This document shows, piece after piece, positions 2,775 through 50,173 of a DNA stretch of 64,000 bases. A model generated the notes under the pieces. That model ran no database searches, was not told where the DNA came from, and worked only from the letters and a program-made list of their open reading frames with translations. This DNA comes from Cyanophora paradoxa CCMP329 (Eukaryota > Plantae > Glaucophyta). Made by a program: the position numbers and the translations under genes. Position 1 is the first letter of the stretch, and each line of letters begins with the position of its first letter. The stretch covers positions 45,807-109,806 of the forward strand of contig QPMI01000158.1 in the NCBI GenBank assembly GCA_004431415.1, read 5' to 3'.

Positions 2775-2805
<31 letters not shown>

Positions 2806-11545: not shown

Positions 11546-12714
11546 CGCACGCGGCAGCACGCGTACGCGGCCGCTGCCGCGGGGGCCCGCCCGCCCTTGA
11601 AGCGAATGCATTAATATTGCGCCCGCTGCGACGCTTGAAGATTAACGATTGAATGCACAATCATCTCCCGAGTTGGGACTCAACTTGGGAGTGAGCTCGA
11701 GTCTATTTATGTTTTTGTGCAGTCCAATCACAATCTTGATCTCAATCTTGCGGCCACGGTGATCGAATTCGAATTTATATACAATGAATTCCGAAGTTCG
11801 AGGCCGATAATCAAATGGACCGTGCAATCAGCAACTTGGCAAGCAAATTAAAGTGCTGTGCATGCTAGGATTCATGAGATCATGATCATCCGATGATCTG
11901 CATGATCATGATCAGGCAATTCATGATCAAGACGTGCGTTAACATAACATATCGTCATCGATCAAGAGTCGTCACGAGTCAACTCAGAGAGAGTCGAATT
12001 TCGAATTGAGGAATTGAATGATCACTTCATCATCAAGCCTGGCAAGTCACTGAGTTCGCCTATCAAGTTACATGTAGCTTAGCTAATCATGATCAAGTTA
12101 TAATTATAGGTAACTTAGCGATTACATATGCCGCAGTGCATAAATGGCAATCAATGAATGCAAAGCAACTGCACATACAACTAGTACTGGCAAAGTTATT
12201 GCATCTAACTTAATCACTCATTGAATGCAAAGCAACTGCACACGAATTCGAAACTGGCAAAGTTAATGCATCTAACTTAATCACTGCACATTCAATCAAC
12301 TACCGTAGCTATGGTACTGCTTAGCTATATAGTATGGATCTGCTCGTTACACTGCAAAAACTGCATGTAGAGACACACATCGTCCGCACGGTCGATATCC
12401 TGGCAAGCATCGCTAACTTCATGAAAACTGCATGTGTATACAAGCACGCATTTGTGCAGAGGCTAACATGGTTCACGAGAAAGTGGAACGCTCCGAGGCT
12501 CATCAGTGATCATGACACAGCTGCAGCTGCCGCAAAACGGATCGGGACCCTACGAGAGAGAGAGAGGGTGCGACAAAATTCGATCGCTGGGAGGGGGCAC
12601 GCCCCCGCGCGACCGGGATAATTTAAGCGAAAGGGAAAAGTTGAAAAAGAGGTGGCGCGGACAAAAAGATAGTTGCTGGACGGCACCCTGGCGTCCATAC
12701 TGCCGCAGAACGGC

Positions 12715-13414
12715 TCAGAAAAACGAGTCGAGGCTGCGGACTGCCTTCGGGCGTGGAATCGGGAGGGGCATCGAGCGGGTGAGAGAGGGCCGGAAGGAGC
12801 CGAGGAGCGGCGCCGGCGAGGCGCGCGCGCGCTCGCTCTCCGGATCCGAGCCCGAGCCGCGGCGGGCGGCGGAGGCGCTCCGCGGCTTGCAGCGGTAGTC
12901 GCGGTCGTACTCCTCTTCGGACTCGGCATCGGAGTCTGAAGACGAGGCGGATCCGCGGCGGCCGCCCAGCCTCGCGGCCAGGGCGAGCAGGGGCGACACG
13001 CTCGCCGTCGGGCGCTCTGACTCCTCCTCGCCGCTCGACTCCTCCTCCTCCAGCTCGATCCAGAAGACCGCTGCGGCGAAATACCAAGTCAGACTGGCAG
13101 CGGAGGGGGGGGGGGGTTGGGGTTGGGGAGGGGGGTTGGGGGTGGGGGTGGAAGGGGGGGGGGGGGGGGGGGGGGGCGAAGGCGGACCCGAGTAGGCGGG
13201 GCAGGAGGCGGGGATGCTGCTCCGGTTGTGGGAGGCGGAGGCGCAGGGCGGGGGCAGGCTCAGGTCCTCCGGGAAGTGGCTGGGGCGGCTGGGCGCCGCC
13301 TCCGCCGACTTGGACTGGCTCGCCCTCCGGTTCGCGATCGACTGCGAGGGCGCCCGCGGCCGCAGCAGCGGGGCCCCGACGGCGGCCGTCGGGTGCGGCC
13401 CGTCGACGGGCGTC
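12715..13414 (-). pseudogene. 3' half of copy 3 of the unknown host gene, interrupted by element 1
   Basis: Homology to 4601-4630 breaks at 13414 and resumes at 41263. Confidence 0.7.
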
Positions 13415-13722
13415 ACACATATACAACTCCCGGCTTTTAGACCTCGGCTTATTTAAATTGATCTTGTTAGTATATAACCTGTATTTATAATATATCTATC
13501 GTGAATATGTGTGTATTTTATCGGTGATTTGTATTTATTTTATCGTGGGTTATAACTTCTTTTTAATAAAATATGTGAAATATGTATAGTTTATGTGAAG
13601 TTTAGCTATATTCTCGATGAGTAGACTTATATATCTCGTGAGTTTTATTATATTAGAGGTGTGACTCAACTTAGTTTAATTATAACTTGCCTCAGTCTAA
13701 AAGCCGGGAGTTGTATATGTGT
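13415..13722. repeat. Terminal fold-back: 28-bp perfect inverted repeat 13415-13442 / 13695-13722
   Basis: ACACATATACAACTCCCGGCTTTTAGAC ... GTCTAAAAGCCGGGAGTTGTATATGTGT; mirrored at the right end. Confidence 0.95.
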
Positions 13723-14103
13723 GTTTGTTCTGAATTTTCAATATAAAAGCGACGATCACGCGCCGTTTCATCATAAACAACTACCATGAGCTGCATGGAA
13801 CGTTCTGCATGCGGCTCTCTATAAAACAAAGTAGATCTATGATATATTATGATTGATTGTTTTGTTTTTTAATTGGTCTTATTCAGTGTTACAGGTGTTA
13901 CAGGTTTATCCCAAAGTCCGCCAAGGAGTGGGGTCTTGGTTCCCGAGTTTGGGCAAGACCTGTAACACCTGTAACAACGTAAACAATTATCATGTGCTGT
14001 ATGAAACATGTCGCGCGCATCGAGAGTGTGCGGCGCACTGTGCGGCGGACTGTGCGCAACGTAAATGTATGAGTTTCGCATCGAGATCGATCGGCTACTC
14101 ATA

Positions 14104-14800
14104 GGAAACTACGCAATCTATCGCAACTACTCAAAGAAACTACGCAATTTAATACCGGGAACTACTGAAAAGATACCAAAACTACGCAACTACGCAACTT
14201 TCTGAAAAAGTCTGAGATTCGGGGCGGGAAAAATTTAGAAAAGTGTAAAACTTGCGTAGTTGCGTAGTTTTGGTTTCGTTTGCGTAGTTTTGGTTTCGAA
14301 TTGCGTAGTTTTTCAGGGTAAGTTGAGTAGTTTCAAGTAGTTTATATATATATTATAAAGTAGTTTCTTATTAATATCAATATGATTCTATGATATATAC
14401 CATGAGTTCACTACTGAAAAGAGCGCCGGCATGCTACAAAGGAAAGCTACGCGATCGTTTCGCACTGCAACACGACCGTTTTATAGGCTACGCAATTGTT
14501 TCGCACCGAAATGCATGCGGGCAATCGGAGACTACGCAAAATAATTAACTACGCATGAAAACTACGCAATCTGATCGCTTTTAATACCGAAAACTACGCA
14601 TTTAATACCAAAACTACGCAACTACGCAACTTTCTGAAAAAGTTTGAGAGTAGGGGTGGAAAAAAATTAGAGAAGTGAAAAACTTGCGTAGTTGCGTAGT
14701 TTTGGTATTAAATGCGTAGTTTGCGGTATTAATTTGCGTAGTTTAACATAGGTAGTTGAGTAGTTTAAAGTAGTTTTTATTAATTATAAAGTAGTTTATT
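14104..14800. repeat. ACTACGCA iteron field with two inverted-arm cassettes (14175-14274, 14607-14706)
   Basis: Arms ACCAAAACTACGCAACTACGCAA / TTGCGTAGTTGCGTAGTTTTGGT around a 54-bp spacer, plus many single copies. Confidence 0.9.
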
Positions 14801-15146
14801 ATTTATCTTATTGTTATCAGTCTGAGACTCTATGAAAATCGATTGACCTTAGTGTGAAACAGTGCGCCCCGCCCACTATGCAAGATACATGCCAACAACA
14901 TGCGAGTTCTATGAAAACAAAAACGATTTAGTCATGTATATATTTCGTATATATGTCTGAACCTCCGTCTAAGATATTCCGCACAACTCTGAATTTGTTT
15001 TGTCTTTTTGTTTTTTTCGCATATGACGACATATACATATATATACCGGCGTCACCGACATATTCGGGGTCATCACATCGCGGCGATTCCGAAAACATAT
15101 AGCATGCCACAAAGTAGTATTTTATGGATTTTTCTCCATTGTAATA

Positions 15147-15620: not shown

Positions 15621-15746
15621 GAGTCCCGAGTCCCGAGTCCCGAGTCCCGAGTCCCGAGTCCCGAGTCCCGAGTCCCGAGTCCCGAGTCCCGAGTCCCGAG
15701 TCCCGAGTCCCGAGTCCCGAGTCCCGAGTCCCGAGTCCCGAGTCCC
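15621..15746. repeat. Perfect heptamer array (GAGTCCC)18
   Basis: 126 bp of uninterrupted repeat. Confidence 0.97.
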
Positions 15747-16114: not shown

Positions 16115-17548
16115 CTACTTCCGTGGTCTCAGAGTCGCTTTTCGATCGCCATTAGCTACCGGCGCTACCGTTGCTACTTTTCTACTACTTCTTAATGTAG
16201 CTTTGGTTTCCGGCGCTTTATAGCTCTCAGTTTGATTAGAGAACGACTTATACCATCGTTGGCTATTCACGCCGCCGGATAGCTTAGGCTCCGCGGCGGT
16301 TACTAGCCGCTGTAATTCTTTATTTACGCGTTTCTCTTTTTGCACTCGATCTTCTAATAGAGAGCCTTGCGGCACAGTCGCGGCGGCTTCTATGCCCTCT
16401 CTACGCAATTGCGCGTCGACGCGCGCCTCGTCCTTTGCCGCCTCTAATGCATCTACTGTGGGCGCCATTAGGTAATCGACCGCCTGAACCGGTAAAAGCT
16501 CGTGGAAGGCAAAGCGACCCTCTACGCGATTGCCGTCCGGATCAGTTAGCATAAACTTATAGCCCTCGCGCGCGGCGACAGTATATACGATTCGGCTCCA
16601 ATTGTTACCGCCCTTAGCGAATGGCGTCTTCTCGATCCGTAGCCTTACTGACATGCCCGGCTGAATCTGATCCAAATAAGCTATCGATTTCTTGAATTTC
16701 GCATCTTCTTTTTGAACTATGAGCTTATAGTGACTCTCGTTGGTCTCGGCAGGCATATAGCCGGTCGCAGAGTGCACCGTATTATTATAGTTATATTCCA
16801 GAGACGAAAGGACATCTATAAATCGCGCCGTATTATTCGCGATGCAGTAGCTCGTGATCAGCCGCCGCATTTGCTTGTTAAATGCTTCTATGCGCCCTTG
16901 CGCGCGATGGTCGGCTGTGTCCGCTATCTGATGCTCGATAAACTGATTCTCGAAATATTCTCTTAACAGGCTATTAGTGAATTCTGAGCCGCGGTCGCTT
17001 TGAATCTTAAAAATTGGTCTCGGCGCCTTATTTTGCAGCTGTATAAAGGCGGCTAAGGTCGACGCCGCGGACTTATCCCGCATCGGTATAATATAGCCGA
17101 CCCGCAACGTGTTCTCCATCCCAGTTAAAAACGCTTGGTAGCCGTCATTATACTTAGCATACGCCGGAAAGAATAGCAGATCAATTACGTAGGTATCGAG
17201 AGGCTGTCGGATCGGTATAGCCGGGTCTCGTTTGCGGGATAGGTGCGGCGCATTAATCTGAACGACCTCTTGCCGGCTATACCACTCTTGCAATTTCTTA
17301 TAATTCTCGTCCGGCAGCTCTTGCCGTAGCTTAGTGATCCCTTTGAAACCGGTTTGCGGATCGTAGAATTTACGCGCGATTTTCGATTCCTCCGGGACAG
17401 CAAGGGCTACGGGCACGTCGCGGGGCACCAAAGCCTTTAAATCAGACCGCTTTACTATGCGGCTCTCTTTATTCTCTTTCGGCACGGGGATCGGCAATGT
17501 GCTCCCCTCTAAATCTTGCGATCGTCTTACTATTGGCGGTCTTGACAT
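16115..17548 (-). CDS. Retroviral-like (rve) DDE integrase
   Basis: VIDLLFF, IQSDRGSEF, GRIEAFNK, YNNTVHSATG motifs. Start placed at MSRPPIVRR by comparison with element 2. Confidence 0.93.
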   Translation of the reverse strand: MSRPPIVRRSQDLEGSTLPIPVPKENKESRIVKRSDLKALVPRDVPVALAVPEESKIARKFYDPQTGFKGITKLRQELPDENYKKLQEWYSRQEVVQINAPHLSRKRDPAIPIRQPLDTYVIDLLFFPAYAKYNDGYQAFLTGMENTLRVGYIIPMRDKSAASTLAAFIQLQNKAPRPIFKIQSDRGSEFTNSLLREYFENQFIEHQIADTADHRAQGRIEAFNKQMRRLITSYCIANNTARFIDVLSSLEYNYNNTVHSATGYMPAETNESHYKLIVQKEDAKFKKSIAYLDQIQPGMSVRLRIEKTPFAKGGNNWSRIVYTVAAREGYKFMLTDPDGNRVEGRFAFHELLPVQAVDYLMAPTVDALEAAKDEARVDAQLRREGIEAAATVPQGSLLEDRVQKEKRVNKELQRLVTAAEPKLSGGVNSQRWYKSFSNQTESYKAPETKATLRSSRKVATVAPVANGDRKATLRPRK

Positions 17549-17620
17549 CCTTGTCATCAGACAATAAAAAAGATCAATGTAACATTTTACTCGCACCAAA
17601 CAATAGAAGGTATTGTTTAT

Positions 17621-18480: not shown

Positions 18481-18645
18481 ATGGACGCCCCGATATGGGA
18501 CGCGCACCCGATCCCCAATTACTTCCTAATCGACCCTGACGACCCCGGATTAAAGTGCATATGGCTTTTACATATCCTAAGGCGACAGCTCCTTCAATTA
18601 GAGCGCAAACCAAGAAAAAGAACGCATGATAAGATAGACGACTAA
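18481..18645 (+). CDS. Small ORF not in the supplied track (54 aa, MDAPIWDAHPIPNY...HDKIDD)
   Basis: A-rich leader (CAGTAAAATG); stop overlaps the PolB stop codon. Confidence 0.4.
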   Translation: MDAPIWDAHPIPNYFLIDPDDPGLKCIWLLHILRRQLLQLERKPRKRTHDKIDD

Positions 18646-21600
18646 CAGCCGAATGGAAGGCTATGTATGCCGTCGCCTGATATGCAGCGCTTGCCATCGA
18701 ATTGGGTCAGCGCTATCCGCTTGCTCTCCAAATCATATAAGTGGTGGCATCGCCGTTGCTTGTTTACTACTGTTACTGTTTTTGTGATCCCGTCAAATAG
18801 GCAGCGCTTAAAGTCGTCGAAATGCACCTCTTTCGAGGCTGTCCCGCTCATTTTTACCTTGTCGTAGCTCTCGGTGCGGAAAGCATATAGCTTCGGTCGC
18901 AGTCCCACATACTCCACTATCTTGACGTCCGGCATCTCATTTTTATATTTACCGGGAACCATCCGGTTCTCGGGACTATAAGGGCAATCTAAATAAGGGC
19001 TGATCGCTCGCATGCCCGCTTCCAGATCCGCGCTCTCTATATACAGACAGAACGAGTCGGTATCGTGGAACAGCAGCTGAGCTTGCGACCAGGTGGGACG
19101 GATCACGTCGTAAAAGAAGCTATAATTATGCAGCTTCGCGGCATCCAGCACATAAGCGCCAATAGCAACCGGTTTATCGAGTTTTACGTGTTTACTATAC
19201 ATTTCGAATGCAACAGCGCTTTCGTTTAATACATTCGTCGCTTTTACCAGTGGGCTCGCCGCATATTTCTTAAACAGCTTCGTGCTGTTCGCGATCTTTA
19301 CCACGGAGCGCCCGCGACACGATTCCAGGCATTTACCGTAAATAGCATTATTCATCAATTTAAAAAAGTCGCTCTCGAATTTATTCCGGGCTTCCTTTCG
19401 CAGTTTCGTGTTCAGATCTATATAGGGCTTCATAAATGCGGCGGTTGCAAACGAGAGCACCCGGTGGATCTTAGTAACTACGATCCCCTTTTTTACCATA
19501 TAGAGCAGCATCGGCTGAGAGACCACGTAATTATATTTCGGGGTAAACGAGGCGATCAGCTTCGGATCTTTACTGAGCTTCTCGCCGCTTATCTCTAATA
19601 GCCCACGCTGATATGCGCCCAGCATGTCCGCAGTAATTACCTCTTTACTCACGATCAGCGGGAAATCGCGATGGTCGCCCTTTAAATAGTCCGGATACGC
19701 AAGGTCGACCTCTATAAATGCACTCCGCCCTACGACCTCGGTAAAAGCTGTGCTTGTGTCGTCCCAGCGATAGTCCCCGACCGGTAAAGGCTGACTGAGC
19801 GCATAGCCATATAGGTTATTCGCATCCAATAGCACTATATGTTTATTCTCGCTATTAGCCTCGGCATATCGTGTGGGCATGGTCGCAAAGCCGCCCCTAA
19901 TTGCCCGCTCAATAAATTCGTATTGATCCGCATCGCTGATCTGTTCTATCGCGACCCTCGTATGCTTTAACATCGCGTCCCACGATAGTCCCGGTGCGCT
20001 CACATAATGCGTCGGATCCAGACCGTATTGCTCATGGGCGAGCATGCTGAATTTACCGAATTTTACCATGAGATCATTAACATCGGACGCCTGAAAATCC
20101 ATGAAATTCGAGGCGTCTATAAACTTGTAAAGTCCCCACTGTAAAGAGAGATACTCATCGAAATTCTTACTTAGGATCTCGACCCGCAGCTTGTCGTCTT
20201 GCTGTGCGATTTTCCTGAATATAGCATGCCCGCACTCGTCCATCCGATCAATGACCACGGCTACTTTCGTTTGCTTTGAGATCCTCCTATGTAAATTGCA
20301 TTTTCGGCAAGCTTTCCCTATATAATCGCCGCTTTGGTGACAGTGATCGCGCACAGGGAAGTTTTCGTGGGTAAACCGCTGATTGCATATATAGCAGTGT
20401 TTGGTCAGCTTATAGGCTTGCTTTTGCGCCTCTGTGAGCGGGATCATAGGTGTGTTGGTAAATAGGGTATTAAGCATCTCGCGACACAGATCCCCTAACG
20501 TGGTAAACATCTGTCCCAGCGGATCCACGCCCTCGAATTCGTGATTTTCAACATGAGAGCCCATAACAACATTAAGTGCCACCGACTTTACCTCTCGCTT
20601 GGTTCGATTTGGTTCATTAGGAACCGGCACCGACTCCATCTCTACTTTGCAGTAGCAGACAGTGGGCAGCCACACCATTTTCCTTAGGTGTTGCAGTCCG
20701 AAAGTAATAAAGCTTCCGGGTTCCGGGCATTTACCTTTACTCAGCCGCCAATCGATACAGCGATTAGAGTCGGTGTGGCTATCGAGTTTCTCCTGTGATC
20801 TAAACCGGGACAAACAGGTTTCGCAATAGAAAATGCGCCCATCGTTTGCTTTATCAAAGGTGGTCTTTAAGAGGCGGCTCAGTGACATTATCGTAATATA
20901 GTGACCCTGTCCGTTTGCGTCCTCGATCAGCAGCAGGTTTACCTTCGATTTACGACGCGGATTACTTGACATGTGCAGTGGGTAAAAGGTTTGGGTCGCA
21001 TTGTCGGCGCCATATATATTAATTGACAGCTCGGGATTATTGTCCTCGAAACGATCTATTAATGCAGCATCGCAAGCCACCGGGAAATTAATGCCTGAGA
21101 AGTCGAGTTCAGTCATCCACCGCCTATATTGGAACGGATCATTACGTTTGTGTCTGTTTATGTCGTTTCTGTGCAGCCATGCGAGGATAGCGTAATTAAA
21201 ACAGTCGTGACCATCGATATTCTTAATATTTACTGTGGCTCGCTTTAATCCAATCCATTCCGGGGTCTCAATGTAGCACCCGCCCATCGGCGCATATGAC
21301 AAAACGGCGACATGTAGCTTATCTAATTTACTGAGCCGGTAGCTGTCGACCTGTATCATCTGTTCATTCATTTGCTGAGCTACACCCACTAACTCAGTGA
21401 GAATATTGCGCGACCTTGTGATTACGAAATAATCGCTGTAAATGTGTTTGGTGATAAAAACGTTAGGATCACTCACTTTTACGTATCGACAGATGAAAGT
21501 AAGGCGCACCTTAATAGCTTTGAGCTCGTCCAGCCGTTCTTTCAGCCGTCCAGGCAGATTTGCAGCGATTGTAGTGAGAAATTCCACCGGATCTAAGATT

Positions 21601-21905
21601 ATCTGTTCATCCGCCTTATAGCTATACCAGGCGTATGCTTTATTCATTGCGAAACCGTCGTCCTCATCGGGTTCTATGACGGCTAAGCGCCGCCCTTCGG
21701 TATAGAAGCGCTCCACATTTTCCAGGCGATTGTAAAGCTCGTCGGCAATATTCGCAAGGTTAGCTAAGCGGGGTTTTCGATCTAAGATCGCCGCCCTCCG
21801 ATCGTATTCGGCTTCGGTGATCTCCCCAGTGACTAAAAGACTACCTAACAAGCCTAATATTTCGTCTTTTTTCTCTTTTATAAGGCGGTTGGTTTGGCGG
21901 GGCAT
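18642..21905 (-). CDS. Protein-primed family B DNA polymerase with N-terminal vOTU-like region and EndoVII/HNH-like Zn insertion; exonuclease motifs degenerate
   Basis: LDANNLYG, KLMNNAIYGK, HDTDS, YGLDPTHYVSAPGLSWDAMLK; DCFNYAI...GHY; DHCHQSG...ACRKCNL. Confidence 0.95.
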   Translation of the reverse strand: MPRQTNRLIKEKKDEILGLLGSLLVTGEITEAEYDRRAAILDRKPRLANLANIADELYNRLENVERFYTEGRRLAVIEPDEDDGFAMNKAYAWYSYKADEQIILDPVEFLTTIAANLPGRLKERLDELKAIKVRLTFICRYVKVSDPNVFITKHIYSDYFVITRSRNILTELVGVAQQMNEQMIQVDSYRLSKLDKLHVAVLSYAPMGGCYIETPEWIGLKRATVNIKNIDGHDCFNYAILAWLHRNDINRHKRNDPFQYRRWMTELDFSGINFPVACDAALIDRFEDNNPELSINIYGADNATQTFYPLHMSSNPRRKSKVNLLLIEDANGQGHYITIMSLSRLLKTTFDKANDGRIFYCETCLSRFRSQEKLDSHTDSNRCIDWRLSKGKCPEPGSFITFGLQHLRKMVWLPTVCYCKVEMESVPVPNEPNRTKREVKSVALNVVMGSHVENHEFEGVDPLGQMFTTLGDLCREMLNTLFTNTPMIPLTEAQKQAYKLTKHCYICNQRFTHENFPVRDHCHQSGDYIGKACRKCNLHRRISKQTKVAVVIDRMDECGHAIFRKIAQQDDKLRVEILSKNFDEYLSLQWGLYKFIDASNFMDFQASDVNDLMVKFGKFSMLAHEQYGLDPTHYVSAPGLSWDAMLKHTRVAIEQISDADQYEFIERAIRGGFATMPTRYAEANSENKHIVLLDANNLYGYALSQPLPVGDYRWDDTSTAFTEVVGRSAFIEVDLAYPDYLKGDHRDFPLIVSKEVITADMLGAYQRGLLEISGEKLSKDPKLIASFTPKYNYVVSQPMLLYMVKKGIVVTKIHRVLSFATAAFMKPYIDLNTKLRKEARNKFESDFFKLMNNAIYGKCLESCRGRSVVKIANSTKLFKKYAASPLVKATNVLNESAVAFEMYSKHVKLDKPVAIGAYVLDAAKLHNYSFFYDVIRPTWSQAQLLFHDTDSFCLYIESADLEAGMRAISPYLDCPYSPENRMVPGKYKNEMPDVKIVEYVGLRPKLYAFRTESYDKVKMSGTASKEVHFDDFKRCLFDGITKTVTVVNKQRRCHHLYDLESKRIALTQFDGKRCISGDGIHSLPFGC

Positions 21906-22905: not shown

Positions 22906-25319
22906 TTACGCTTCAATATCATCCTCATCTTCGTCTTCAAACTGTGTCTTGGCGATCTTAGTGAGCCCCTTATAAACTCGCTTCGACTTCCCTTTAATTG
23001 TAGTCACAGTCGATTCAATCTTGAATGTTTCGAGCACTTTGTTACTGATAGTGCGAGTGGTAACCTTTGTCTTGATATCGTAGCTTCGCATCATTTCCGC
23101 GCAAGCTTTGAATACCTCATCACAGGCAACATGGGCGCCCTTTTCCTCTGACAGCTTGTAATTTTCGCGCAGATAGGAACCCAGCTTATCGCTGTCGTCG
23201 AGATATTTGGCGCTATGCTCGATGACAGATTGCGGCGGGTTTTGCAGGATCTCTTTAACTTTGCCAGTAGCGAGCATATCGATGAGAATCTGAATATTTG
23301 CCCGCTTGTATTCATTTTTCTCGTCGCCCTCAAACATTTCCATGAGGGTTTCGTCCGCTTTCTTCTCTCCGGCTTTGGGATTAGGTGAGTAAACAGAGCG
23401 GAATGGGATCGATCGGAACCGACGCTTAATAGCTTTGTCGGGCTTTTCGATTTCCAGATTATTGTTGCACAGGATCACCATAGTAAACCGAGGCTTGAAA
23501 TCAATAGGATCCTTGAAAAGTCCTCGGCTGTGCAGAGCTCGCCACCTGTCAGTGTCTTCATCATACCGCATAGAAGCTTGTCGCCATCATTAGGTTCGTT
23601 TGCATGGGTGAGCCGGACACCTTGCTTATTAGCAAGCTCGGGAATCGGGCTATTTGCTTTGTGGACTTGTGTGAGCAAAGTAATGCTAATCGGGCGAGCA
23701 TAATCACCGAATGTCTCTTGCATAAACGTTTCAATCACACTCTTTCCATTAGCACCGACACCTGTGAATAGATAGAACGTTTGCAGGTCGGTTTTACCTG
23801 TGAGTGCATATGCATAGAGGCTGATCAGGTAGTTGTAGAGTTCCATATCTCCGCCACAGATATCCAAATAAATGTCTTTCAGCCTTTTAACCTTTGCCTC
23901 ATCAACTTCCTCGCAGTAATCAAAGCCGACAGTCTTGCTCACCATATCTTCCGTCGTCCCCTTGCGGAAAGTCATATTATTTAGATCAAACACGCCATTG
24001 GTAAACCCCACAATATTGGGAACTGTGTCCAGAGTCGCCATAAAGTCATCGTCTTGCAGCTGTGTGATAATATGCGGTTCCAGCGACTTTTGATACGGTG
24101 TATTCTGAATCCTCTTGTGAATTGCCAGCAACATGTTGGCGCTCTTCTCAGCTTTTTCCTTCACAAGATCATCTCCACTTGCCCTGAGAGCATTGGAAAG
24201 ATGATAGCCCGCCCTCTTAGAGAACCACTGTGCCACATGCTCGGGGATCTTAGAAAGTAACGACTTCTCCGTTTTATCATATTTCCAGATACCATTTTTG
24301 GGGTTAAGGTTAAACCAGACCTTATTTGAATATTTCGTGGTCGCTTTCAGGATCTTGGCGCAGATAATTGCAACAGGATAATGGGCACCTTCAACTGAAA
24401 CGGTCTTGTCAATGAGAGTATTAATTTCTAAATGGTGCTTCTCTTCCTCAGTCAGCTCTATGTTAACAGAGAACTCTTTCGGCTCGCAGTTCTCGCTGTA
24501 ACTCTTCACAATATACTCATTATACTTGCCATCTCGCTTTTTCTTCACCCACCAGTTATTGGAATCGTGGGATTCATCGCAGCAGGGACACAGGAACCCC
24601 TTGTTAGCCGCATTAAAGTCAAAGCCCTCATCGCGGCGTGCATAGATATTTGGGAATAGGAACCCCATCCCACACAGCCCGGCAATAATAGCAGCTTCGG
24701 TATTATCCTTGCTCGAATTTCCCGCTTTCGGCTGTGGATTATTGGCATGCTTGTAATCGTAGTTCTCAATAATCCATTTACGGAAAGCGTCAGAGGGCTC
24801 ATTAAACTTGCACGACGATGCCCACGGCTTAATTACCCAGGTCTTATTAGGGCTCGGGCATACATTGAGAAGTCCCGCAGTGCCAGTGCCAGTGATGGTT
24901 TTGAGGTCGACCTTCTTGTATCCCTTAAAAGCCGGCGCGCTATCTGTGATTTTCAGCTTATCAAACTCATCAGGGCGTCGAAAGAATACATGGTAGCCCT
25001 TTCGAGTCTTTTCGAGCGGCTGATGGGCATCGAAATCACCGGGAAACATCTCAACGAATTTCTGATAGGTTTCCTCATCGTCGAAATCAACGACCATCAT
25101 CGAATTCGACAGCAGAATGCCCCAATTAGTGAACTCGTTGGAAGCAAAGGCTTCGTCGTATCTTCCCCAGTTCCAAACACCGCCTTTATGGGTGTAGGCG
25201 GGCTTTTTAACCTCGTCTTTCATGGGAATAATCGTGTTTTTCGACAAGGTCTCATCGCCACGCAGCCAATCAGCGAGCTCTTGGAGTAAAGTCTTTTGTT
25301 TCAACGTCATCTTCGCCAT
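22906..25319 (-). CDS. Prim-Pol (bifunctional primase/polymerase N-terminal) - Zn-finger - D5-like SF3 helicase fusion; one frameshift near 23525
   Basis: MVVDFDD, TRKGYHVFF, CPCC..H, GFTNGVFDL, Walker A GVGANGKS, ANEP. Restoring one C gives LTGGELCTARGLFKDPIDFKP. Confidence 0.88.
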
Positions 25320-27183: not shown

Positions 27184-28095
27184 TCAAAATTTACCCAATT
27201 TCTTTGCAAATTTTGGGCGGCGCTTTTCTTGGTATGCCAGCAATAGATTGGGGTCTTTAAGTAGGTCGGCTTCGATTATTCTTTTGGTGGATCGCTTTAA
27301 GGTGGCGACGTTTCCACTCACAGGTTTCGTTATATCGGTGGTTTGGGGTTGGTCGCCATTTACCTCTGTGGAGCTCTGTTTTACCGGCTGTTTACCAGCG
27401 GTCTTTATGTCGTCCGCCGCTTTTTTAAAGAAGCGCTTGAATTTATATTCGTCGGGCACCGGATCAGCCTTGCCAACAGAGAATTCCAGGCTATATTTCG
27501 CATTGTTTACCACGATCACCTGATAGCTGTGACTGTATTCGGTCATCACCTTCTCGAACCACCGCTTTTCGTATGGATTAAACTCGTCCTCGGCGCTCTC
27601 CATCTCCTTTCTATTCGGCAATGAGAACAGGAATATATATTCGGCGTTTACTCTAAGTGTGGGCGAAATCTTCGTGAGTTTCTGTGACAAAATCCAGACG
27701 CTCACAAACAGATGGCGTCCAGCAGTGAAAAGACGATTTAATATAGGCTCACCCTTTCCTGACATCGATAGACTCGGATTATCAATAAAATCGTCCAGCA
27801 CAATTAACAGGTTACCGACTTTCTCATTTTTCTTGATCCTCTCCTTGCGTTTCTCTATTATATTGTCGATCAGCTTATGGTCGAAATCCTCATACAGATA
27901 CGATGTGACATTGTCGTATTGATGATTCCAGATCGTGGAGGCGAAAATCATCACCGAATCTATCTTGTCCTCGTTGTGGTAAAGCAGGTATTTCAAAAAC
28001 ACTGACTTCCCAGTTGCAGTTTTGCCCACAAAAACGGCGCGATTCGGGAAATCCAGGCTTCCCGGGTCAAACTCACTCAGATCTTGTATATCCAT
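27184..28095 (-). CDS. A32-like FtsK/HerA genome-packaging ATPase
   Basis: GKTATGKS, LIVLDD, GRH...SQ...LRVNAEY. Confidence 0.93.
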   Translation of the reverse strand: MDIQDLSEFDPGSLDFPNRAVFVGKTATGKSVFLKYLLYHNEDKIDSVMIFASTIWNHQYDNVTSYLYEDFDHKLIDNIIEKRKERIKKNEKVGNLLIVLDDFIDNPSLSMSGKGEPILNRLFTAGRHLFVSVWILSQKLTKISPTLRVNAEYIFLFSLPNRKEMESAEDEFNPYEKRWFEKVMTEYSHSYQVIVVNNAKYSLEFSVGKADPVPDEYKFKRFFKKAADDIKTAGKQPVKQSSTEVNGDQPQTTDITKPVSGNVATLKRSTKRIIEADLLKDPNLLLAYQEKRRPKFAKKLGKF

Positions 28096-28146
28096 TTCCC
28101 TTATAAGAAACATATAAAAATTACAAAACGCAACAGCCTTTATTAC

Positions 28147-29595
28147 TCATGCGCTTATCTTCGATAATCCATTGGCATTCATCACAAGAATATTGTGGCA
28201 GTAAGCCGAGATCTGAACACCGACCTTTGTCCAGGTGGCGAGGGGTGTGCCATTGGGTGTGAGCAGCAGGAAGCTCGACGCGGATTGTGTTAGATCGACG
28301 TAGCCAGTCGCCTTCTCACCTTTGAGCGCCGCTTTACCATCGAGGGCAAAGCAGAAGCCAGTGTAAATGGGGCGCTTGTTGCTATCGATCCAGTTGGTCA
28401 TCTTGAATTTATCGGCGAGCTCCATAGCCGCAGATTGCAGCGGGACACCAGTGTTAGAATATAAGTAATTGTTGTTGTTTAGGACTTGCATAACGACATT
28501 ATCATCGTAGGCAAGGGTGCGGACAGTAGAGTGCCCTCCGAAATTGTTGCCGAGTGCATTTTCGTCGCGAACCTTGACAACAAGTGCGTAAACAAGTCCC
28601 GAAATTTGAGATAGTGACAGCCGGAGACCGGAGCCGAGAGCTTGACCGGTATAATCCGCAAACTGAATATCAGTGTAGGGGATGGCGATGCCAGAGGTCT
28701 TAACACGAGTAATGATTTCGCCCATCGTTTCCTCATCGATGTTAACAGCATCCATAATAAGACGAGGGGTCGTCATTTCCAGATTCGCAATTGCAGGTGT
28801 AGATGTGAGAGCCGCATTGTCGAAAATGGCAGTGGCGTTAGGGTGAGCTAAGGTCTTAATATTTCCGAAAGCAGCCGCAACAGCAAGCGTCGTCTCGCCA
28901 TCGGTCGAATTGGCAGCAGTAATTGCAGCCGTGTTATTCTGAGCGTAAACGCCAGGAACCGCCGCAGTTTCGAGAAGCGCAGGGGTTTGGAAATATACTT
29001 CGACCGCGATTTCGGATGGGAGCGCACCGATGGGCACGCCAGCATCGAGGAAGCTTGGAATTCGCATGGTAAAAATGCCGCCAGCTTGGTTGCCGCCCTC
29101 TACCTTCGGTCCGAGATGTAGCCCATGCTTGCGCTTCTTTTGCTCGAATTCAGCCGGAGAGTTAACCAGGAAAGCGTAATCTACCAGTCGCTCAGCGGGA
29201 ATAATTTGCTCATACGACCCGTATTTAATGCTGACTCGCTGAACGAACGATCCAGGAAGCCCGCGGACGAATCCAGTGTTGAATAGATCAGCCGAGCAGT
29301 CAGCAGAGGTCTTGGCGATGGCAGTCAGCGCCTTCGCCGATGGGATGGTAACTTGGAGGCTAATACCATTGCACCAATTGTAGCGAGGGAGATAGAAGAC
29401 AACACGAGTGGTAGCACCAGTAGAGGAGAACAGATTGCCGGGATCCGCAATTGGGAGCACCTCCACACGAGAAGGCTTGAATTGTTTGTCCACACCCACG
29501 ATAAATCCGCGATCCAAAAGCATGCTCTTGTAATCCTCCGGGGTTTCGAGGACGGATTTGAGCGTGAGGCGGCTAAGCGAGGTCGTGGGATCCAT
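28147..29595 (-). CDS. Putative double-jelly-roll major capsid protein (482 aa)
   Basis: Size, beta-rich pattern, VFYLPRY and VPIGAL..EIAVEVYF motifs, position beside ATPase and pentons, conserved in element 2. Confidence 0.75.
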   Translation of the reverse strand: MDPTTSLSRLTLKSVLETPEDYKSMLLDRGFIVGVDKQFKPSRVEVLPIADPGNLFSSTGATTRVVFYLPRYNWCNGISLQVTIPSAKALTAIAKTSADCSADLFNTGFVRGLPGSFVQRVSIKYGSYEQIIPAERLVDYAFLVNSPAEFEQKKRKHGLHLGPKVEGGNQAGGIFTMRIPSFLDAGVPIGALPSEIAVEVYFQTPALLETAAVPGVYAQNNTAAITAANSTDGETTLAVAAAFGNIKTLAHPNATAIFDNAALTSTPAIANLEMTTPRLIMDAVNIDEETMGEIITRVKTSGIAIPYTDIQFADYTGQALGSGLRLSLSQISGLVYALVVKVRDENALGNNFGGHSTVRTLAYDDNVVMQVLNNNNYLYSNTGVPLQSAAMELADKFKMTNWIDSNKRPIYTGFCFALDGKAALKGEKATGYVDLTQSASSFLLLTPNGTPLATWTKVGVQISAYCHNILVMNANGLSKISA

Positions 29596-39735: not shown

Positions 39736-39781
39736 AGAGAGATGGGTTTATTGTTATTTTTCATAGATCATGCATAAGAAA

Positions 39782-41262
39782 GGCATGTATCTTGCATAGT
39801 GGGCGGGGCGCACTGTTTCACACTAAGGTCAATCGATTTTCATAGAGTCTCAGACTGATAACAATAAGATAAATAATAAACTACTTTATAATTAATAAAA
39901 ACTACTTTAAACTACTCAACTACCTATGTTAAACTACGCAAATTAATACCGCAAACTACGCATTTAATACCAAAACTACGCAACTACGCAAGTTTTTCAC
40001 TTCTCTAATTTTTTTCCACCCCTACTCTCAAACTTTTTCAGAAAGTTGCGTAGTTGCGTAGTTTTGGTATTAAATGCGTAGTTTTCGGTATTAAAAGCGA
40101 TCAGATTGCGTAGTTTTCATGCGTAGTTAATTTATTTTGCGTAGTCTCCGATTGCCCGCATGCATTTCGGTGCGAAACAATTGCGTAGCCTATAAAACGG
40201 TCGTGTTGCAGTGCGAAACGATCGCGTAGCTTTCCTTTGTAGCATGCCGGCGCTCTTTTCAGTAGTGAACTCATGGTATATATCATAGAATCATATTGAT
40301 ATTAATAAGAAACTACTTTATAATATATATATAAACTACTTGAAACTACTCAACTTACCCTGAAAAACTACGCAATTCGAAACCAAAACTACGCAAACGA
40401 AACCAAAACTACGCAACTACGCAAGTTTTACACTTTTCTAAATTTTTCCCGCCCCGAATCTCAGACTTTTTCAGAAAGTTGCGTAGTTGCGTAGTTTTGG
40501 TATCTTTTCAGTAGTTCCCGGTATTAAATTGCGTAGTTTCTTTGAGTAGTTGCGATAGATTGCGTAGTTTCCTATGAGTAGCCGATCGATCTCGATGCGA
40601 AACTCATACATTTACGTTGCGCACAGTCCGCCGCACAGTGCGCCGCACACTCTCGATGCGCGCGACATGTTTCATACAGCACATGATAATTGTTTACGTT
40701 GTTACAGGTGTTACAGGTCTTGCCCAAACTCGGGAACCAAGACCCCACTCCTTGGGCGGACTTTGGGATAAACCTGTAACACCTGTAACACTGAATAAGA
40801 CCAATTAAAAAACAAAACAATCAATCATAATATATCATAGATCTACTTTGTTTTATAGAGAGCCGCATGCAGAACGTTCCATGCAGCTCATGGTAGTTGT
40901 TTATGATGAAACGGCGCGTGATCGTCGCTTTTATATTGAAAATTCAGAACAAACACACATATACAACTCCCGGCTTTTAGACTGAGGCAAGTTATAATTA
41001 AACTAAGTTGAGTCACACCTCTAATATAATAAAACTCACGAGATATATAAGTCTACTCATCGAGAATATAGCTAAACTTCACATAAACTATACATATTTC
41101 ACATATTTTATTAAAAAGAAGTTATAACCCACGATAAAATAAATACAAATCACCGATAAAATACACACATATTCACGATAGATATATTATAAATACAGGT
41201 TATATACTAACAAGATCAATTTAAATAAGCCGAGGTCTAAAAGCCGGGAGTTGTATATGTGT
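39782..41262 (-). repeat. Right TIR of element 1 (1481 bp)
   Basis: Reverse complement of 13415-14893. Confidence 0.95.
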
Positions 41263-41813
41263 GGCGTCGAGATCGCCCGGGGGGACGTCGCCGTCTGAAC
41301 ATAGAAAATCAGAGCGCGAAGTACATCCGCGGGATCGTGTAATAATTACAACCGCCCACCGTGGAATGAGAAGGCGACCGCGAGGGGGTGGCGCATGCGC
41401 AGTCGTCGTCGGCAGGCGCCGCCGGACAGGCGAGCTCCGCGTGGGCGACGTCCCTCAGGGTCAGCGAGCTCGGGGGCGTCTTGACGTGCGGCGCGTCGAG
41501 GCACAGGTCGTGCATCCGAACGCCGGCGTCGAAGTCGTATGCGTCTGCGGCGGCAATGGGGAACTTCATGGTCAGACAGCGGTTTGGAGACAGGAGTGGA
41601 TTAATATTGAAGACTGGGATATTTGGCCAGATCTAGAGCGCTAGCCTCCTGACATTTGCGATAAAGCGCCGGCGCGCCCTTCGCATCTGGGCTGGCCATG
41701 GGAGGGAGCGCACCCGAATCACAATCGGCATACGCGTCGTCGCAGACGCGCAGGCTCTTCGGATTCAGGCGTTGGAAGTCTTCCACCGTGGGGGCGAGAG
41801 TGCGGCAGGCCAT
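41263..41813 (-). pseudogene. 5' half of copy 3 of the unknown host gene
   Basis: MACRTLAPTVEDFQRLNPKSLRVCDD... and MKFPIAAADAYDFD... continue into 12715-13414 once element 1 is removed. Confidence 0.65.
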
Positions 41814-43566: not shown

Positions 43567-43639
43567 ACACATATGAATATTCATATTTTAATCCCTCGGC
43601 GTTCCGCCTCAGGATTAAAATATGAATATTCATATGTGT
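43567..43639. repeat. Terminal hairpin of element 2 (28-bp stem, 17-nt inner segment)
   Basis: ACACATATGAATATTCATATTTTAATCC-CTCGGCGTTCCGCCTCA-GGATTAAAATATGAATATTCATATGTGT. Confidence 0.95.
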
Positions 43640-45538: not shown

Positions 45539-46924
45539 CTAGCTAGTTTTGGTCCTTTCTCTTAGTGTTCTTTGAGGTTTAGGGGCTGTATATGACTCCT
45601 TAGTAGTCTGAAAGTCATTATACCATCTCTGGCTATTCACTTCTGAAAGTTTCTGTGTCCCTGCTATAGTGAGCTTTTTGAGTTCCCTATTAACTTTGCC
45701 AGCCTTCTCCTTTCTAGCCTCTATCAAAGGCTTATCTGGGACTTCATTAGCAGCTTCTATGCCTTCTCTCCTTATAGCAGCATCAACCCTGGCTTCCTCC
45801 TTGGCTTGCTCTAAGGCATCCACTGTAGGGGTTTCTAGATATTCAACTGCATTCACAGGCAACAGCTCATGGAAAGCAAACCTGTTTTCTATGATCTCAC
45901 CAGTGGGACTCCTTAGCTTAAACTTAAAGCCTTCCCTACTATCAACAGTGTAAACCATCCTAGACCAATTGTTACCCTGTTTAGCAAAGGGGTTCTTCTC
46001 AACTTTCACTCTAACAAACATGCCAGGCTGCATGGTATCAAGATAAGCTATTGATTTCTTGAATCTTTCATCTTCTAATCCCACTATATACCTGTAATGC
46101 TCCTCTGTAGTTTCGCCTGGCTTCATCTTAGTAGCTGAGTGGACTGTATTATTGTAATTATACTCAATGTCACCTAACACATCAAAGAATCTAGCTGTGT
46201 TATTGGCTATGCAGTAGTTTGTGATCAGTCTCTTAATCTGCTTGTTAAAGGCTTCAATTCGACCTTGGCTTCTGTGGTCAGCAGTTCCACTCACTTGGTG
46301 TTCTATGTATTTACTAGATAGATACTCCTGGAATATTCGATTTTGGAATTCACTCCCAGCATCTGATTGAACCTTTACTATGGGTCTTGCCACTCTCATC
46401 TCAAGCTGTTTAAATGCAGCCAATGTAGTGAGAGCTGATTTATCCCTTATAGGTATAACATACCCAGTTCTTAGTGTGGATTCCATTGCAGTCATAAATG
46501 TATCATAACCATTGTTTTGTTTCTTATAAGCTGGGAAAAAGAGCAAATCAATCACATAAGTATCAAGGGGTTGCCTAATTGGGACCATGGGATCTCTCTT
46601 TCTAGATATAGCAGGTGCATTGATCTGAACAACTTCTTGTTTTTTATAGAACTCTTGCAACTGCTTATAGGATTCATCAGGTAACTCAGCCCTCATAGCT
46701 TGAAGCCCTTTGTAACCAGTTCTCACATCATAGAATCTCTTGGCAATCTTGCTAGTTTCTTTCACTGCAATAGCAACTGGGATCTCTACTGGGACAAGCT
46801 CTTTCATCTCTGATTTTTTAACAATTCGAGATTCCCCCTTTTCCTCCTTTGGAACTGTGATGGGCAATAGGTTACCTTGCAGTTGCTCAGTGGTTCTTCT
46901 AACTATTCTTCCAGTTGCTGGCAT
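45539..46924 (-). CDS. rve integrase of element 2
   Basis: VIDLLFF, VQSDAGSEF, GRIEAFNK; collinear with the element-1 integrase. Confidence 0.93.
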   Translation of the reverse strand: MPATGRIVRRTTEQLQGNLLPITVPKEEKGESRIVKKSEMKELVPVEIPVAIAVKETSKIAKRFYDVRTGYKGLQAMRAELPDESYKQLQEFYKKQEVVQINAPAISRKRDPMVPIRQPLDTYVIDLLFFPAYKKQNNGYDTFMTAMESTLRTGYVIPIRDKSALTTLAAFKQLEMRVARPIVKVQSDAGSEFQNRIFQEYLSSKYIEHQVSGTADHRSQGRIEAFNKQIKRLITNYCIANNTARFFDVLGDIEYNYNNTVHSATKMKPGETTEEHYRYIVGLEDERFKKSIAYLDTMQPGMFVRVKVEKNPFAKQGNNWSRMVYTVDSREGFKFKLRSPTGEIIENRFAFHELLPVNAVEYLETPTVDALEQAKEEARVDAAIRREGIEAANEVPDKPLIEARKEKAGKVNRELKKLTIAGTQKLSEVNSQRWYNDFQTTKESYTAPKPQRTLRERTKTS

Positions 46925-46927: not shown

Positions 46928-49900
46928 TTAATTAAAAGGAACAGAATTAATACCATCTGGTAAGATGTATCTCTTTGCATCAAAGCAGTTTAGGGCAACC
47001 CTTCTACTCACAGTGTCTATTATTGTGTGATCTGCCCTTCTTTTCTGCTTTGCAGTCACAGTCTTGCTGATACCTGCAAATAAACACTGTTTAAAATCAT
47101 TAAATTGGAGTTCCTCAGTTGAAGTCCCAGAGAGCTTACTCCTCTCAATCTCAGCAGTTCTGAAACTGTAAACTTTGGCTCTTAGACCCACATACTCCAA
47201 TATAGCAGAACCTGGCATCTCATTTTTGTATTTACCTGGGGTCATTCTGTTAGATCCCCCTAGGTCCAAGGCATAAGATATATTCTCTATATCTTTTTGT
47301 AAGGTCTTAGATTCAATATATAGACAGAAGGAGTCAGTATCATGGAATAGTAACTTTGCTTTTGACCATTGAGACCTCACAGTATCATAGAAGAACTTGT
47401 AGTTATGCAGTTTGGCAGCATCCAAAACATAAGCCCCAATAGCAACAGGTTTATCTAGCTTCACATGTTTTGTGTAAAACTCAAATGCAACTGCCCTTTC
47501 ACTTATGGGACTTGTTGATTTCACTAAAGGAGAGGCTGCATATTTCATAAATAGCTTCTCAGTGTTGGCAATCTTAACCACAGATCTACCTCTACATGAT
47601 TCAATGCATTTCCCATAGATTGAATTATTCATGAGCTTATAGAAATCAGCCTCGAATTTATTCACTGCTTTCCTTCTCATCTCAGTATTCAGCTCAATGT
47701 AGGGTTTCATTACAGGAGCCACAGTAAATGATAGGACCCTGTGAACCTTCTTTAGTTTCACCCCTTTGTCCAACAGATACTGTAGAAGAGGCTCAGAAAT
47801 CACATAGTTGGTCACAGAACCAAAGGTTGCAGTTAGCTTAGGGGTCTTATCAAGCTCTTCTCCTGAGAGATCTAATAGGCTCTTTTGATATTGTGATAAT
47901 TCTGCATATTCTACTATTTTCTTGTTAATAATTAGGGGGAAATCACTGTGGTCTAGATATAGCCTAATTGGGTAATCCAGATCAACTTCCAGGAAACTGG
48001 ATCTGTTATCTTGTGGGTTGAATTCGGTCTCCCATCTAAAATCACCAACTGGGATTGGCTGACTCAAACAGTAGCCATACAAGTTGTTAGCATCAAACAG
48101 CATTATATGGGAGTTCTCACCATCAGCCTCAGCATACCTACAAGGCATTGTTGCAAAGCCACCCCTGATTCCCCTCTCAACAAATTCGTATTGCTCTACA
48201 TCACTTATAAGCTCTATTTTTGCCTTGGTGGTCCTAAGCATAGCATCCCAAGATAACCCAGGTGCAGATACATAATGAACTGGGTCCAATCCATATACTG
48301 AGTGTGAAAGCCTTCTGAAAGCCTGGAATTTGCTCATTAACTCATCTACATCAGCAGCCCCAAAGTCCATAAAATTACTTGCATCAATGAACTTGTAAAG
48401 ACCCCATTGCAATGAAAGGTATTGATCAAAGTTTTTCGAAAGGATTTCGATTCGCTTTTTATCACCCATGCCTGCTATTTTTCTGAAAATGAATGTCCCA
48501 CAGTCATCCATTTGGTCAACAACAACTGCAACTTTGGTTTGCTTTGAGATTCTCCTATGGAGATTGCAGTTTCTGCATGCAGGAGCAATGTAATGACCTG
48601 TGTGGTGGTCATGATCTCTGCATTTGAAGTTCTCCTTGGTGAATCTCTCACTGCAAAGGTAACAGTGTTTTGTAGCTCTGTAAATTGCTTTCTGCTCATC
48701 TGTGAGTTCATTCATGGGAATATTGGTAAACAGGAAGTCAATTAGCTCTCTTGCTTTGGATTCCAAGCATTCAAACAGACCTCCCATTGGATCCTGACCC
48801 TCAAATCGAAAATCTTGAACATCTGCCCCAGTGACTATTCTAATGTTGACTGCTGAGACTTCCCTCTTGGATTTCGATGCATCTATGGGGATGCTTCTAT
48901 TTTCAATCTTGCAGTAAACCACAACAGGAAGCCAAACAGTTTTCCTTAGGTTTTTCAGTCCAAACTCTATGGTGGTCTCAGGTTTAGGGGTGATTCCCTT
49001 TGAGAGTCTCCAATCAATGCATCTGTTTGAGTCCACATGAGCAGTGAGTTTAGCCTCAGACCTGAATCGAGATAAGCATGTATCACAGTAGTGTAACTTT
49101 TGATCATTGTATGTTTCATGGTTTACTTTCAATAGCCTTGAAAGGGACATGATTGTAATATAGTGACCATTCCCTTCATCATCAAATATCAGCATGAGAT
49201 TAACCTTATGCTTTCTGCCTGGGTTACTTGATTGATGCAGGGGATAAATAACCTCTCCATCGATTCCAAATATATTAATGCTAATGCCTGCATTTTGAGC
49301 CTCGAATTTATCAATTATTTCAGCATCACAGGCAACAGGGAATGGGATATTGTCGAAATTGAGAGCCAGCGGATTATAAGCGATTGCTGAGTATTTCCAT
49401 TTGCGATATTGGGAAAGCTCATTCTTCTTATGGGAGTTTATCGCTTTTCTGTGAATATATGCCAAAATTGCATTTTCGAAGCAGGAATCATCAATATTTC
49501 GAATATTCACTGTGGCTCTCTTCCTAGCAATCCACTCTGGGGTTTGTAGAAAGCATCCACCAGTTGGAGCATAACTCATAATAGCCACTCTGAGTATTTC
49601 AATTCTTTCTAAGCGATAGCTATCAACCACATTCATCTGCTCCTGACACATTTGGGCTGCTTTATTCAGCTCAGTTCGAATATTTCTCGACCTGGTTAAT
49701 ACAAAGTAATCACTGTAAATGTATTTCGATATCCAAACCTGTGGATTGCTCACTTTAACGAACTTGCAGATAAAAGACAAGCGAACCTTGATTGCCCTGA
49801 ATTGATCTAAACCCTGCTTTAATCGATTTGGAAGGGATGTAGCAATTCTATCCAGGAATTCAATCACATCTACAACAACTTCCCTTCTGGCTCTGTATGT

Positions 49901-50173
49901 GAGCCAGCGATATAATTCATTCATGGCTGTTCCATCTTCTGCCTCTGGTTCTATTTGCCTAAGCCTATCCAGTTCATCCAAGGTTTCAATTTTATCATAT
50001 AGGTTATTTGCTTTTCTGGTTAATCTGCTTAAAGTGGGTCTGCCCCTTGCAATTAAATCTATTTCCCGGTCATATTCAGCCTCTGTTATTTCATGGGCTG
50101 CATATAGTGTTCCCAGCAATCCCATGAGTTCCCATTTCTTCTCCCTTATGAGTTTGTTGGTAATTCGGGGCAT
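46928..50173 (-). CDS. Protein-primed PolB of element 2
   Basis: FDANNLYG, KLMNNSIYGK, HDTDS; full-length homolog of 18642-21905. Confidence 0.95.
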   Translation of the reverse strand: MPRITNKLIREKKWELMGLLGTLYAAHEITEAEYDREIDLIARGRPTLSRLTRKANNLYDKIETLDELDRLRQIEPEAEDGTAMNELYRWLTYRARREVVVDVIEFLDRIATSLPNRLKQGLDQFRAIKVRLSFICKFVKVSNPQVWISKYIYSDYFVLTRSRNIRTELNKAAQMCQEQMNVVDSYRLERIEILRVAIMSYAPTGGCFLQTPEWIARKRATVNIRNIDDSCFENAILAYIHRKAINSHKKNELSQYRKWKYSAIAYNPLALNFDNIPFPVACDAEIIDKFEAQNAGISINIFGIDGEVIYPLHQSSNPGRKHKVNLMLIFDDEGNGHYITIMSLSRLLKVNHETYNDQKLHYCDTCLSRFRSEAKLTAHVDSNRCIDWRLSKGITPKPETTIEFGLKNLRKTVWLPVVVYCKIENRSIPIDASKSKREVSAVNIRIVTGADVQDFRFEGQDPMGGLFECLESKARELIDFLFTNIPMNELTDEQKAIYRATKHCYLCSERFTKENFKCRDHDHHTGHYIAPACRNCNLHRRISKQTKVAVVVDQMDDCGTFIFRKIAGMGDKKRIEILSKNFDQYLSLQWGLYKFIDASNFMDFGAADVDELMSKFQAFRRLSHSVYGLDPVHYVSAPGLSWDAMLRTTKAKIELISDVEQYEFVERGIRGGFATMPCRYAEADGENSHIMLFDANNLYGYCLSQPIPVGDFRWETEFNPQDNRSSFLEVDLDYPIRLYLDHSDFPLIINKKIVEYAELSQYQKSLLDLSGEELDKTPKLTATFGSVTNYVISEPLLQYLLDKGVKLKKVHRVLSFTVAPVMKPYIELNTEMRRKAVNKFEADFYKLMNNSIYGKCIESCRGRSVVKIANTEKLFMKYAASPLVKSTSPISERAVAFEFYTKHVKLDKPVAIGAYVLDAAKLHNYKFFYDTVRSQWSKAKLLFHDTDSFCLYIESKTLQKDIENISYALDLGGSNRMTPGKYKNEMPGSAILEYVGLRAKVYSFRTAEIERSKLSGTSTEELQFNDFKQCLFAGISKTVTAKQKRRADHTIIDTVSRRVALNCFDAKRYILPDGINSVPFN

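Follow-up and report, generated by a model that had tools for sequence, protein, structure and literature searches.

The window, by which we mean the whole 64,000-nt stretch of Cyanophora paradoxa CCMP329 DNA analysed here, contains a complete 27.8-kb Polinton-like virus at 13415-41262 (element 1) and a second element that starts at 43567 and is known from its left end, its right end lying beyond the window (element 2). Only 2.3 kb separate the two, which suggests an insertion hotspot. Element 1 is inserted into a single copy of a host repeat of 3.8-5 kb (4107-13414 and 41263-43566), whose paralogues are empty, and two of these paralogous host sites within the window, near 4613-4618 and 8456-8461, carry one GGCGTC each, so that both boundaries of element 1 are fixed to the base. 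The host flanks have about 60-70% G+C. The boundary features, including the target-site duplications (TSDs) and terminal inverted repeats (TIRs), are as follows:

13409..13414, plus strand: left TSD of element 1, GGCGTC (two empty paralogous sites)
13415..14917, no strand assigned: left TIR of element 1, about 1.5 kb
39758..41262, no strand assigned: right TIR of element 1
41263..41268, plus strand: right TSD of element 1, GGCGTC

Over the first 1,479 bases, the two TIRs of element 1 differ by two single-base indels. A 7-base tandem repeat (GAGTCCC, about 17 copies, 15621-15740) lies in the gap that separates the left TIR from the integrase gene. The surrounding host DNA includes perfect inverted repeats of 119 bp inside a 915-bp direct duplication (2257-3290) and a short A+T-rich element with a perfect 27-bp stem and an 8-nt loop (42418-42583), the latter with very high summed contig depth in all four sequencing runs examined.

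The genes that bear on classification and replication are listed below:

16115..17557, minus strand: rve-type integrase, element 1 (PF00665 at E 0.007, under the Pfam cut-off; aligns with PF00665-carrying proteins)
18642..21905, minus strand: pPolB, element 1, with a terminal protein (TP) domain (Ser188), vOTU Cys/His, an HNH/endonuclease VII insert, a degenerate exonuclease and polymerase motifs
22906..25319, minus strand: D5-like primase-helicase, element 1, in two overlapping reading frames
27184..28113, minus strand: A32-like packaging ATPase, element 1
28147..29595, minus strand: probable major capsid protein, element 1 (resembling NCLDV capsid families by its features, with a low recognition score)
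45539..46924, minus strand: rve-type integrase, element 2, 64% identical to that of element 1
46928..50173, minus strand: pPolB, element 2, 62% identical to that of element 1, with TP Ser185 and an HNH insert

Genes for a D5-like primase-helicase, an A32 ATPase and a probable major capsid protein (55849-57261) are present in element 2 too. Neither element's probable capsid protein has a Pfam match, and among 1.84 billion representatives these proteins find only 3 relatives, which makes them a little-sampled capsid group. The primase-helicase frames break at different places, within the helicase in element 1 and at the primase/helicase boundary in element 2 (50424-53016); mutation, assembly error or recoding may account for the two-frame arrangement. 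Pfam and NCBIfam scans of the longer ORFs returned no match to an adenovirus-like maturation protease, nor to an HUH Rep among the ORFs scanned, element 2 being represented in part and several ORFs staying without assignment. Among the features by which Polintons/Mavericks are recognized, we found a 6-bp TSD and long TIRs (element 1), a pPolB with TP and vOTU, a packaging ATPase and a retroviral-like integrase, the Pfam match of the last being weak. Both elements are filed as pPolB+rve Polinton-like viruses (PLVs), not as canonical Polintons.

The best viral-library matches of the pPolBs were adintovirus/MELD PolB proteins. Alignment with 120 homologues shows the polymerase motifs, the vOTU Cys/His and the HNH residues conserved in both polymerases; the first aspartate of the exonuclease is missing, together with ~110 residues of its third region. 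The same degeneration, again with ~110 residues missing, is seen in the closest polymerase homologue (P0004, 47% identity; the closest protein to the integrase, P0001, has 63%). Here the exonuclease loss adjoins a primase-helicase gene in an adintovirus-like polymerase; in mavirus, exonuclease loss occurs alongside a helicase (10.1101/2024.03.18.585575). Both polymerases carry the PF02945 insert with its motif Asp/His and Asn retained, and a PDB sequence search with the HNH region returned nothing relevant. A model of element 2 pPolB residues 85-560, built on 86 sequences, reached a pLDDT of 85.5, while a whole-polymerase model built on 3 sequences (pLDDT 40) was unusable. The best PDB matches of the TP model were Y-family polymerases over ~120 columns, including an isolated little-finger domain; these were weak (E 0.014-0.07), with none at E 0.001 or better in the PDB fold search. 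Ser185 lies in a modelled loop between the last helix and the last strand, and PRD1-like TPs have been assigned a little-finger-type fold with the linking residue in the loop before the last strand (10.1101/2024.03.18.585575). Since the TP domain is kept and its serine is placed by the model in the linking loop, the protein-priming apparatus is probably intact and priming probably remains protein-based.

Each of the three element ends in the window forms a terminal fold-back:

13415-13722: left fold-back of element 1, perfectly paired 28-bp arms (13415-13442 / 13695-13722)
13415..13442, no strand assigned: its outer arm, beginning 5'-ACAC at the host junction
13443..13448, no strand assigned: flank CTCGGC (GCCGAG on the 3'-terminal strand)
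13449..13688, no strand assigned: spacer, 240 nt, 76% A+T
13689..13694, no strand assigned: flank GCCTCA (TGAGGC on the 3'-terminal strand)
13695..13722, no strand assigned: inner arm, the outer arm's perfect complement
40955..41262, plus strand (the 3'-terminal strand): right fold-back of element 1, in the order arm, TGAGGC, spacer, GCCGAG, arm
43567..43639, minus strand: left fold-back of element 2; on the 3'-terminal strand a 28-bp stem, T.G plus tandem G.A, a 4-bp stem and a GAA triloop

The arms occupy 40955-40982 and 41235-41262 at the right end of element 1, and 43567-43594 and 43612-43639 in element 2, whose spacer is GTTCC (5 nt); the arm-to-arm distance is accordingly 17 nt in element 2 versus 252 nt in element 1. 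The left stem of element 1 measures 28 bp, or 29 bp counting the last TSD base. At all three ends (two of them the TIR pair of element 1), the base of the stem coincides with the host junction. Folding z-scores were -8.8 for element 1 (0 of 100 shuffles equally good) and -9.0 and -9.7 for element 2 (0 of 200). The flank pair CTCGGC/GCCTCA occurs 6 times in the window: three occurrences, with stems of 28-29 bp, are the three element ends, and the remaining three have stems of 0-1 bp. The 28-bp fold-back with these flanks was thus present in both elements where the original prediction had placed it, and stem length, perfect pairing and closure by GGC:GCC held as well, whereas its statement that the stems share only about the first 8 nt did not, the arms matching at 16 of 28 positions.

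Other repeats occur in and around these termini. No stable fold appeared within the 240-nt spacer in centroid structures; a 14-base segment of it (41002-41015, and 13662-13675 at the left end) matches a repeat at 43984-43997 in the subterminal region of element 2. Each element 2 arm contains a 16-base perfect palindrome (43571-43586 and 43620-43635), making an alternative small-hairpin fold possible. Spaced perfect inverted repeats (15-39 bp, loops of 39-80 nt) stand in arrays at 13887-14732, 22612-22866 and 44165-45050, filling the TIRs, and a AACTACGC-type unit of element 1 recurs internally between the helicase and polymerase genes; these arrays may be promoters or origins. Because such repeats lie in the same TIRs, perfect pairing alone does not set the terminal stems apart.

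The 3 x 3 internal loop between the arms had been described as CTC/TCA: the loop is indeed conserved, but that reading holds on the 5' strand only and is the less telling one, the loop being structured on the opposite, 3'-terminal strand. There, the core reads TGAGGC ... GCCGAG, i.e., T.G, G.A and A.G followed by GGC:GCC. TGAG/CGAG fits the pyrimidine-GA-purine motif with one wobble replacing C-G, and this motif forms tandem sheared G.A pairs by NMR (PMC10085684; PMC11014236). In element 2 the same strand is capped by its GAA triloop, a GNA loop, and GNA loops are contained in Streptomyces 3' telomere overhangs (PMC5449611). The 1728 possible 3 x 3 mismatch loops include 48 that give tandem GA on either strand, 8 of them also with the wobble; since this calculation was post hoc and the core is common to the two families by descent, it counts once. 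None of 9 other inverted repeats inspected carries the G.A core. Judged from the sequence, the core points to the 3'-terminal strand as the one that folds.

Next, we compared the arms of the two families represented by elements 1 and 2. They differ at 12 of 28 positions, and all 12 differences still pair, each being mirrored in both arms; the TIRs are otherwise unalignable (best blastn match 34 bp, E 0.001). The evidence base for this comparison is two families in one genome. Covariation, proposed as a check on related termini, was found between these two families (12 of 12 pairing), but our pattern and protein searches found no outside terminus that could extend it. Searches for the full pattern (both arms and flanks, spacer of 3-33 nt) returned no stretch in viral and none in metagenome contigs. 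Half-pattern matches had a partner arm at 20 or more of 28 positions in 0 of 37 viral loci and in none of at least 120 prokaryote loci, the latter from a scan that covered 19 of 64 parts, and were dismissed as chance matches. An Rfam search gave no match. Protein-led searches recovered 21 + 11 distant loci at 24-42% identity, two other such searches being empty; the flank pair on a stem occurred in none of these 32 loci, none of which is established as reaching an element end, making this no test of the family. Perfect inverted repeats of at least 16 bp were present in 3 of the 32, those at L024 and L032 being intergenic. At L024 (5895-5963), a 33-bp perfect hairpin lies between convergent integrase and polymerase genes on a Polinton-type contig. 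At L032 (11534-11884), the two halves of a 41-bp perfect inverted repeat, 269 nt apart, hold the start codons of two divergent genes; this repeat may be a symmetric or invertible promoter.

Copies in sequencing runs offer a view within the element 1 family. Overall, 20 of 24 runs, all from one organism, contain the stretch or part of it, and 4 were examined at contig level; because these share the window's own insertion flanks, they probably represent one strain rather than independent samples. Contigs of the element 1 family have a depth of roughly at least 10x that of single host contigs, and other host flanks start behind 41262/41263, confirming the end of element 1. In all four runs, position 40968 in the inner arm is in the majority G, versus T in the window, and a contig ends at 41248, one base before its pairing partner 41249. 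The depth of the window allele falls from 417 to 129 beyond 41248 in run X8, which indicates a second allele at 41249; from the contig ends and depth we infer a compensating change there. A second branch at 41243 in the outer arm, read from contig ends in run X8 (depth 92 versus 253), has no partner change listed at 40974, and either counts against an end-restoring role of the hairpin or reflects assembly loss. Across 40915-41262, roughly ten positions of element 1 as it stands in the window show alleles that are in the minority of the family in the runs examined. In the contigs of all four runs, from which rare variants are dropped, not a single joint was seen and no contig ended loose at the inner arm; in X1, X3 and X8, the interior, the inner arm and the spacer lay on continuous family-depth contigs. 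There is no common loop inversion and no solo unit in the runs examined.

Taken together, these patterns make it likely that the 3' hairpin at the element ends is functional. The proposal of a selected single-stranded DNA structure is supported by the 12 of 12 paired differences, the spacers of 5 versus 240 nt and the strand-specific G.A motif, and among the roles put forward with it we favor end regeneration, at a probability of about 40%: a single-stranded 3' hairpin that would mark and restore the exact genome end before protein-primed copying. Specifically, release of the provirus or strand displacement would leave the 3' end single-stranded and able to fold; however long the spacer, the G.A core would close the stem at its top. 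An end that is too short would be filled in with the inner arm as template, while leftover host bases would hang as a 3' flap and be trimmed, for which the pPolB HNH domain or a host nuclease are candidates. A helicase would then open the hairpin for TP priming of 5'-ACAC at the end so restored. With the outer arm continually recopied from the inner one in this way, pairing would stay perfect without inversion of the loop. This reading fits best with a stem base that is the last nucleotide, the polarity toward the 3' strand, the indifference to spacer length, the co-changing arms, the non-inverting loop and the retained TP. In Streptomyces, fold-back extension repairs truncated ends before TP priming; for the whole-genome TP-primed replicons of adenovirus and phi29, which start on duplex ends, the same source states that repair of this kind has not been reported (PMC5449611), a point against our reading.

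The weak step is that nothing we saw halts extension at the stem base, where the paired 3'-OH is a perfect primer too; without such a halt, the same hairpin primes the whole strand. Parvovirus-style self-priming, in which the folded 3' end would prime the entire complementary strand and an asymmetric nick, perhaps by HNH, would keep one orientation, is the leading rival reading, albeit one we regard as doubtful. The 3'-OH is indeed paired at the stem base with the template continuing inward, both elements encode a helicase as well as an HNH domain whose motif residues are retained, and resolution at the left end of MVM preserves orientation, in support of an asymmetric version. Self-priming has also been proposed for the palindromic termini of Halocafeteria virophages and PLVs (10.64898/2026.07.28.741278), although those palindromes mostly accompany non-pPolB elements. 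Against it stand the retention of the TP domain, the linking serine and the vOTU Cys/His, an end whose initial ACAC repeat is of the type usual for protein priming (PMC4196379), the absence of an HUH Rep among the ORFs scanned, and the fact that AAV-type resolution yields flip and flop (PMC1131931), neither of which was seen in the window or the run contigs. The same orientation argument bears on the suggestion that the termini are mini-units able to invert or excise, each with an additional integrase end that faces inward. Its attraction is that the inner arm is an exact inverted copy of the terminal 28 bp. The flip/flop and solo-unit checks attached to it came out negative, however: all 3 ends show one orientation, the window holds no solo arm, and joints are absent from the contigs of all 4 runs. 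With contigs unbroken through the inner arm in X1, X3 and X8, even if rare forms may drop from assemblies, we regard this reading as highly improbable.

Two further explanations dispense with end repair. The fold could act as an excision signal only, with a stem or cruciform in the chromosome cut at its base by the endonuclease VII-like pPolB insert or the integrase. The coincidence of stem base and host junction, the PF02945 insert with motif residues in both polymerases and an A+T-rich spacer that would melt readily all agree with this, and the exit of such elements from the chromosome is treated as open in PMC8547959. However, PF02945 is present in about 70 of the 120 polymerase homologues listed, making it a domain general to this polymerase group, such inserts have been read as homing-endonuclease/intein invasions (10.1101/2024.03.18.585575), and a symmetric cruciform leaves the one-strand polarity of the motif unexplained; we consider excision alone improbable. 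We judge it no more probable that the arms have no single-stranded function, being either inverted sites to which the integrase or the TP-polymerase binds, or the by-product of a template switch, in which case hairpin correction in the course of strand displacement would keep them identical. The first 8 bases may serve as an integrase or priming site, the same TIRs are full of other perfect spaced inverted repeats, and accidental annealing is listed as an alternative in the Halocafeteria preprint (10.64898/2026.07.28.741278). On the other hand, conservation is best at 12 bases that do not belong to the arms; they do not complement each other and, on one strand, make up a non-canonical DNA motif already known; arm spacing varies (17 versus 252 nt), and the remaining TIR sequence is unalignable between families. 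Finally, excision could be joined to the favored end-restoring role in a release-and-repair end: a G.A-capped 3' hairpin cut at its base by the endonuclease VII-like domain of pPolB, with the inner arm as template and TP priming to follow. We consider this full combination unlikely; if true, it would explain how an integrase-only provirus exits with exact ends, and fold-back end repair would occur in a pPolB replicon. Such an end would bear on how Polintons, PLVs and virophages exit from their integrated state and regain the exact ends that protein priming requires.

Compared to known systems, the two elements have in common with Polintons/Mavericks and pPolB+rve PLVs the 6-bp TSD and long TIRs (element 1), rve integrase, pPolB with TP/vOTU/HNH insert, A32 ATPase and a short terminal dinucleotide repeat. 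They differ from these in the 27.8-kb size of element 1, no maturation protease being detected, an extra D5 primase-helicase, a mavirus-like degenerate exonuclease and the terminal fold-back, which is absent from the racket model. In parvoviruses (AAV), too, a long stem has the 3' end paired at its base, whereas here an HUH Rep and flip/flop were not found (in ORF scans and at contig level, respectively) and the TP priming apparatus is kept. Streptomyces telomeres resemble these ends in being TP-primed linear DNA with a ~300-nt foldable 3' strand, GNA loops with sheared G.A and a fold-back that restores the last bases (PMC5449611), and by sequence the elements here carry the G.A core in the 3' strand, element 2 also a GNA loop. 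In contrast, Streptomyces combines multiple packed palindromes with Tap and Tpg, and lacks a B-family polymerase and integration, while our ORF scans gave no matches to Tap or Tpg and each element end is one long stem; the likeness is one of analogy, not kinship.

The nearest counterpart is in the Halocafeteria seosinensis virophages (subtypes 1, 2, 5 and 6) and PLV subtype 4, where a 2026 preprint (10.64898/2026.07.28.741278) describes terminal palindromes inside the TIR adjoining the TSD, likewise in rve-integrated Polisuviricotina elements and with a hairpin role proposed. It was the only report of terminal palindromes in such elements in the literature searched; the words "hairpin" and "palindrom" do not occur in the main text, as available, of PMC12220804, PMC8547959 and 10.1101/2025.10.09.676808. 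Within that literature, which comprised non-subscription papers, no TP-pPolB element was described as having a fold-back that is interrupted and carries a conserved G.A core specific to one strand. We conclude that the fold-back is real and a variant of a recently noticed feature, and its mechanism we infer. The 73-nt terminus of element 2, whose core is defined and for which candidate enzymes can be named, is accessible to tests with oligonucleotides and purified proteins. The Halocafeteria screen had a gap limit of 10 nt, and its termini, as described in the portion available, come mostly from non-pPolB elements and are without a conserved internal motif. Here, by contrast, a TP-bearing pPolB accompanies a strand-polarized G.A core and arms 17 or 252 nt apart, beyond the reach of that screen, and we predict that palindrome screens with small gap limits overlook a class of termini.
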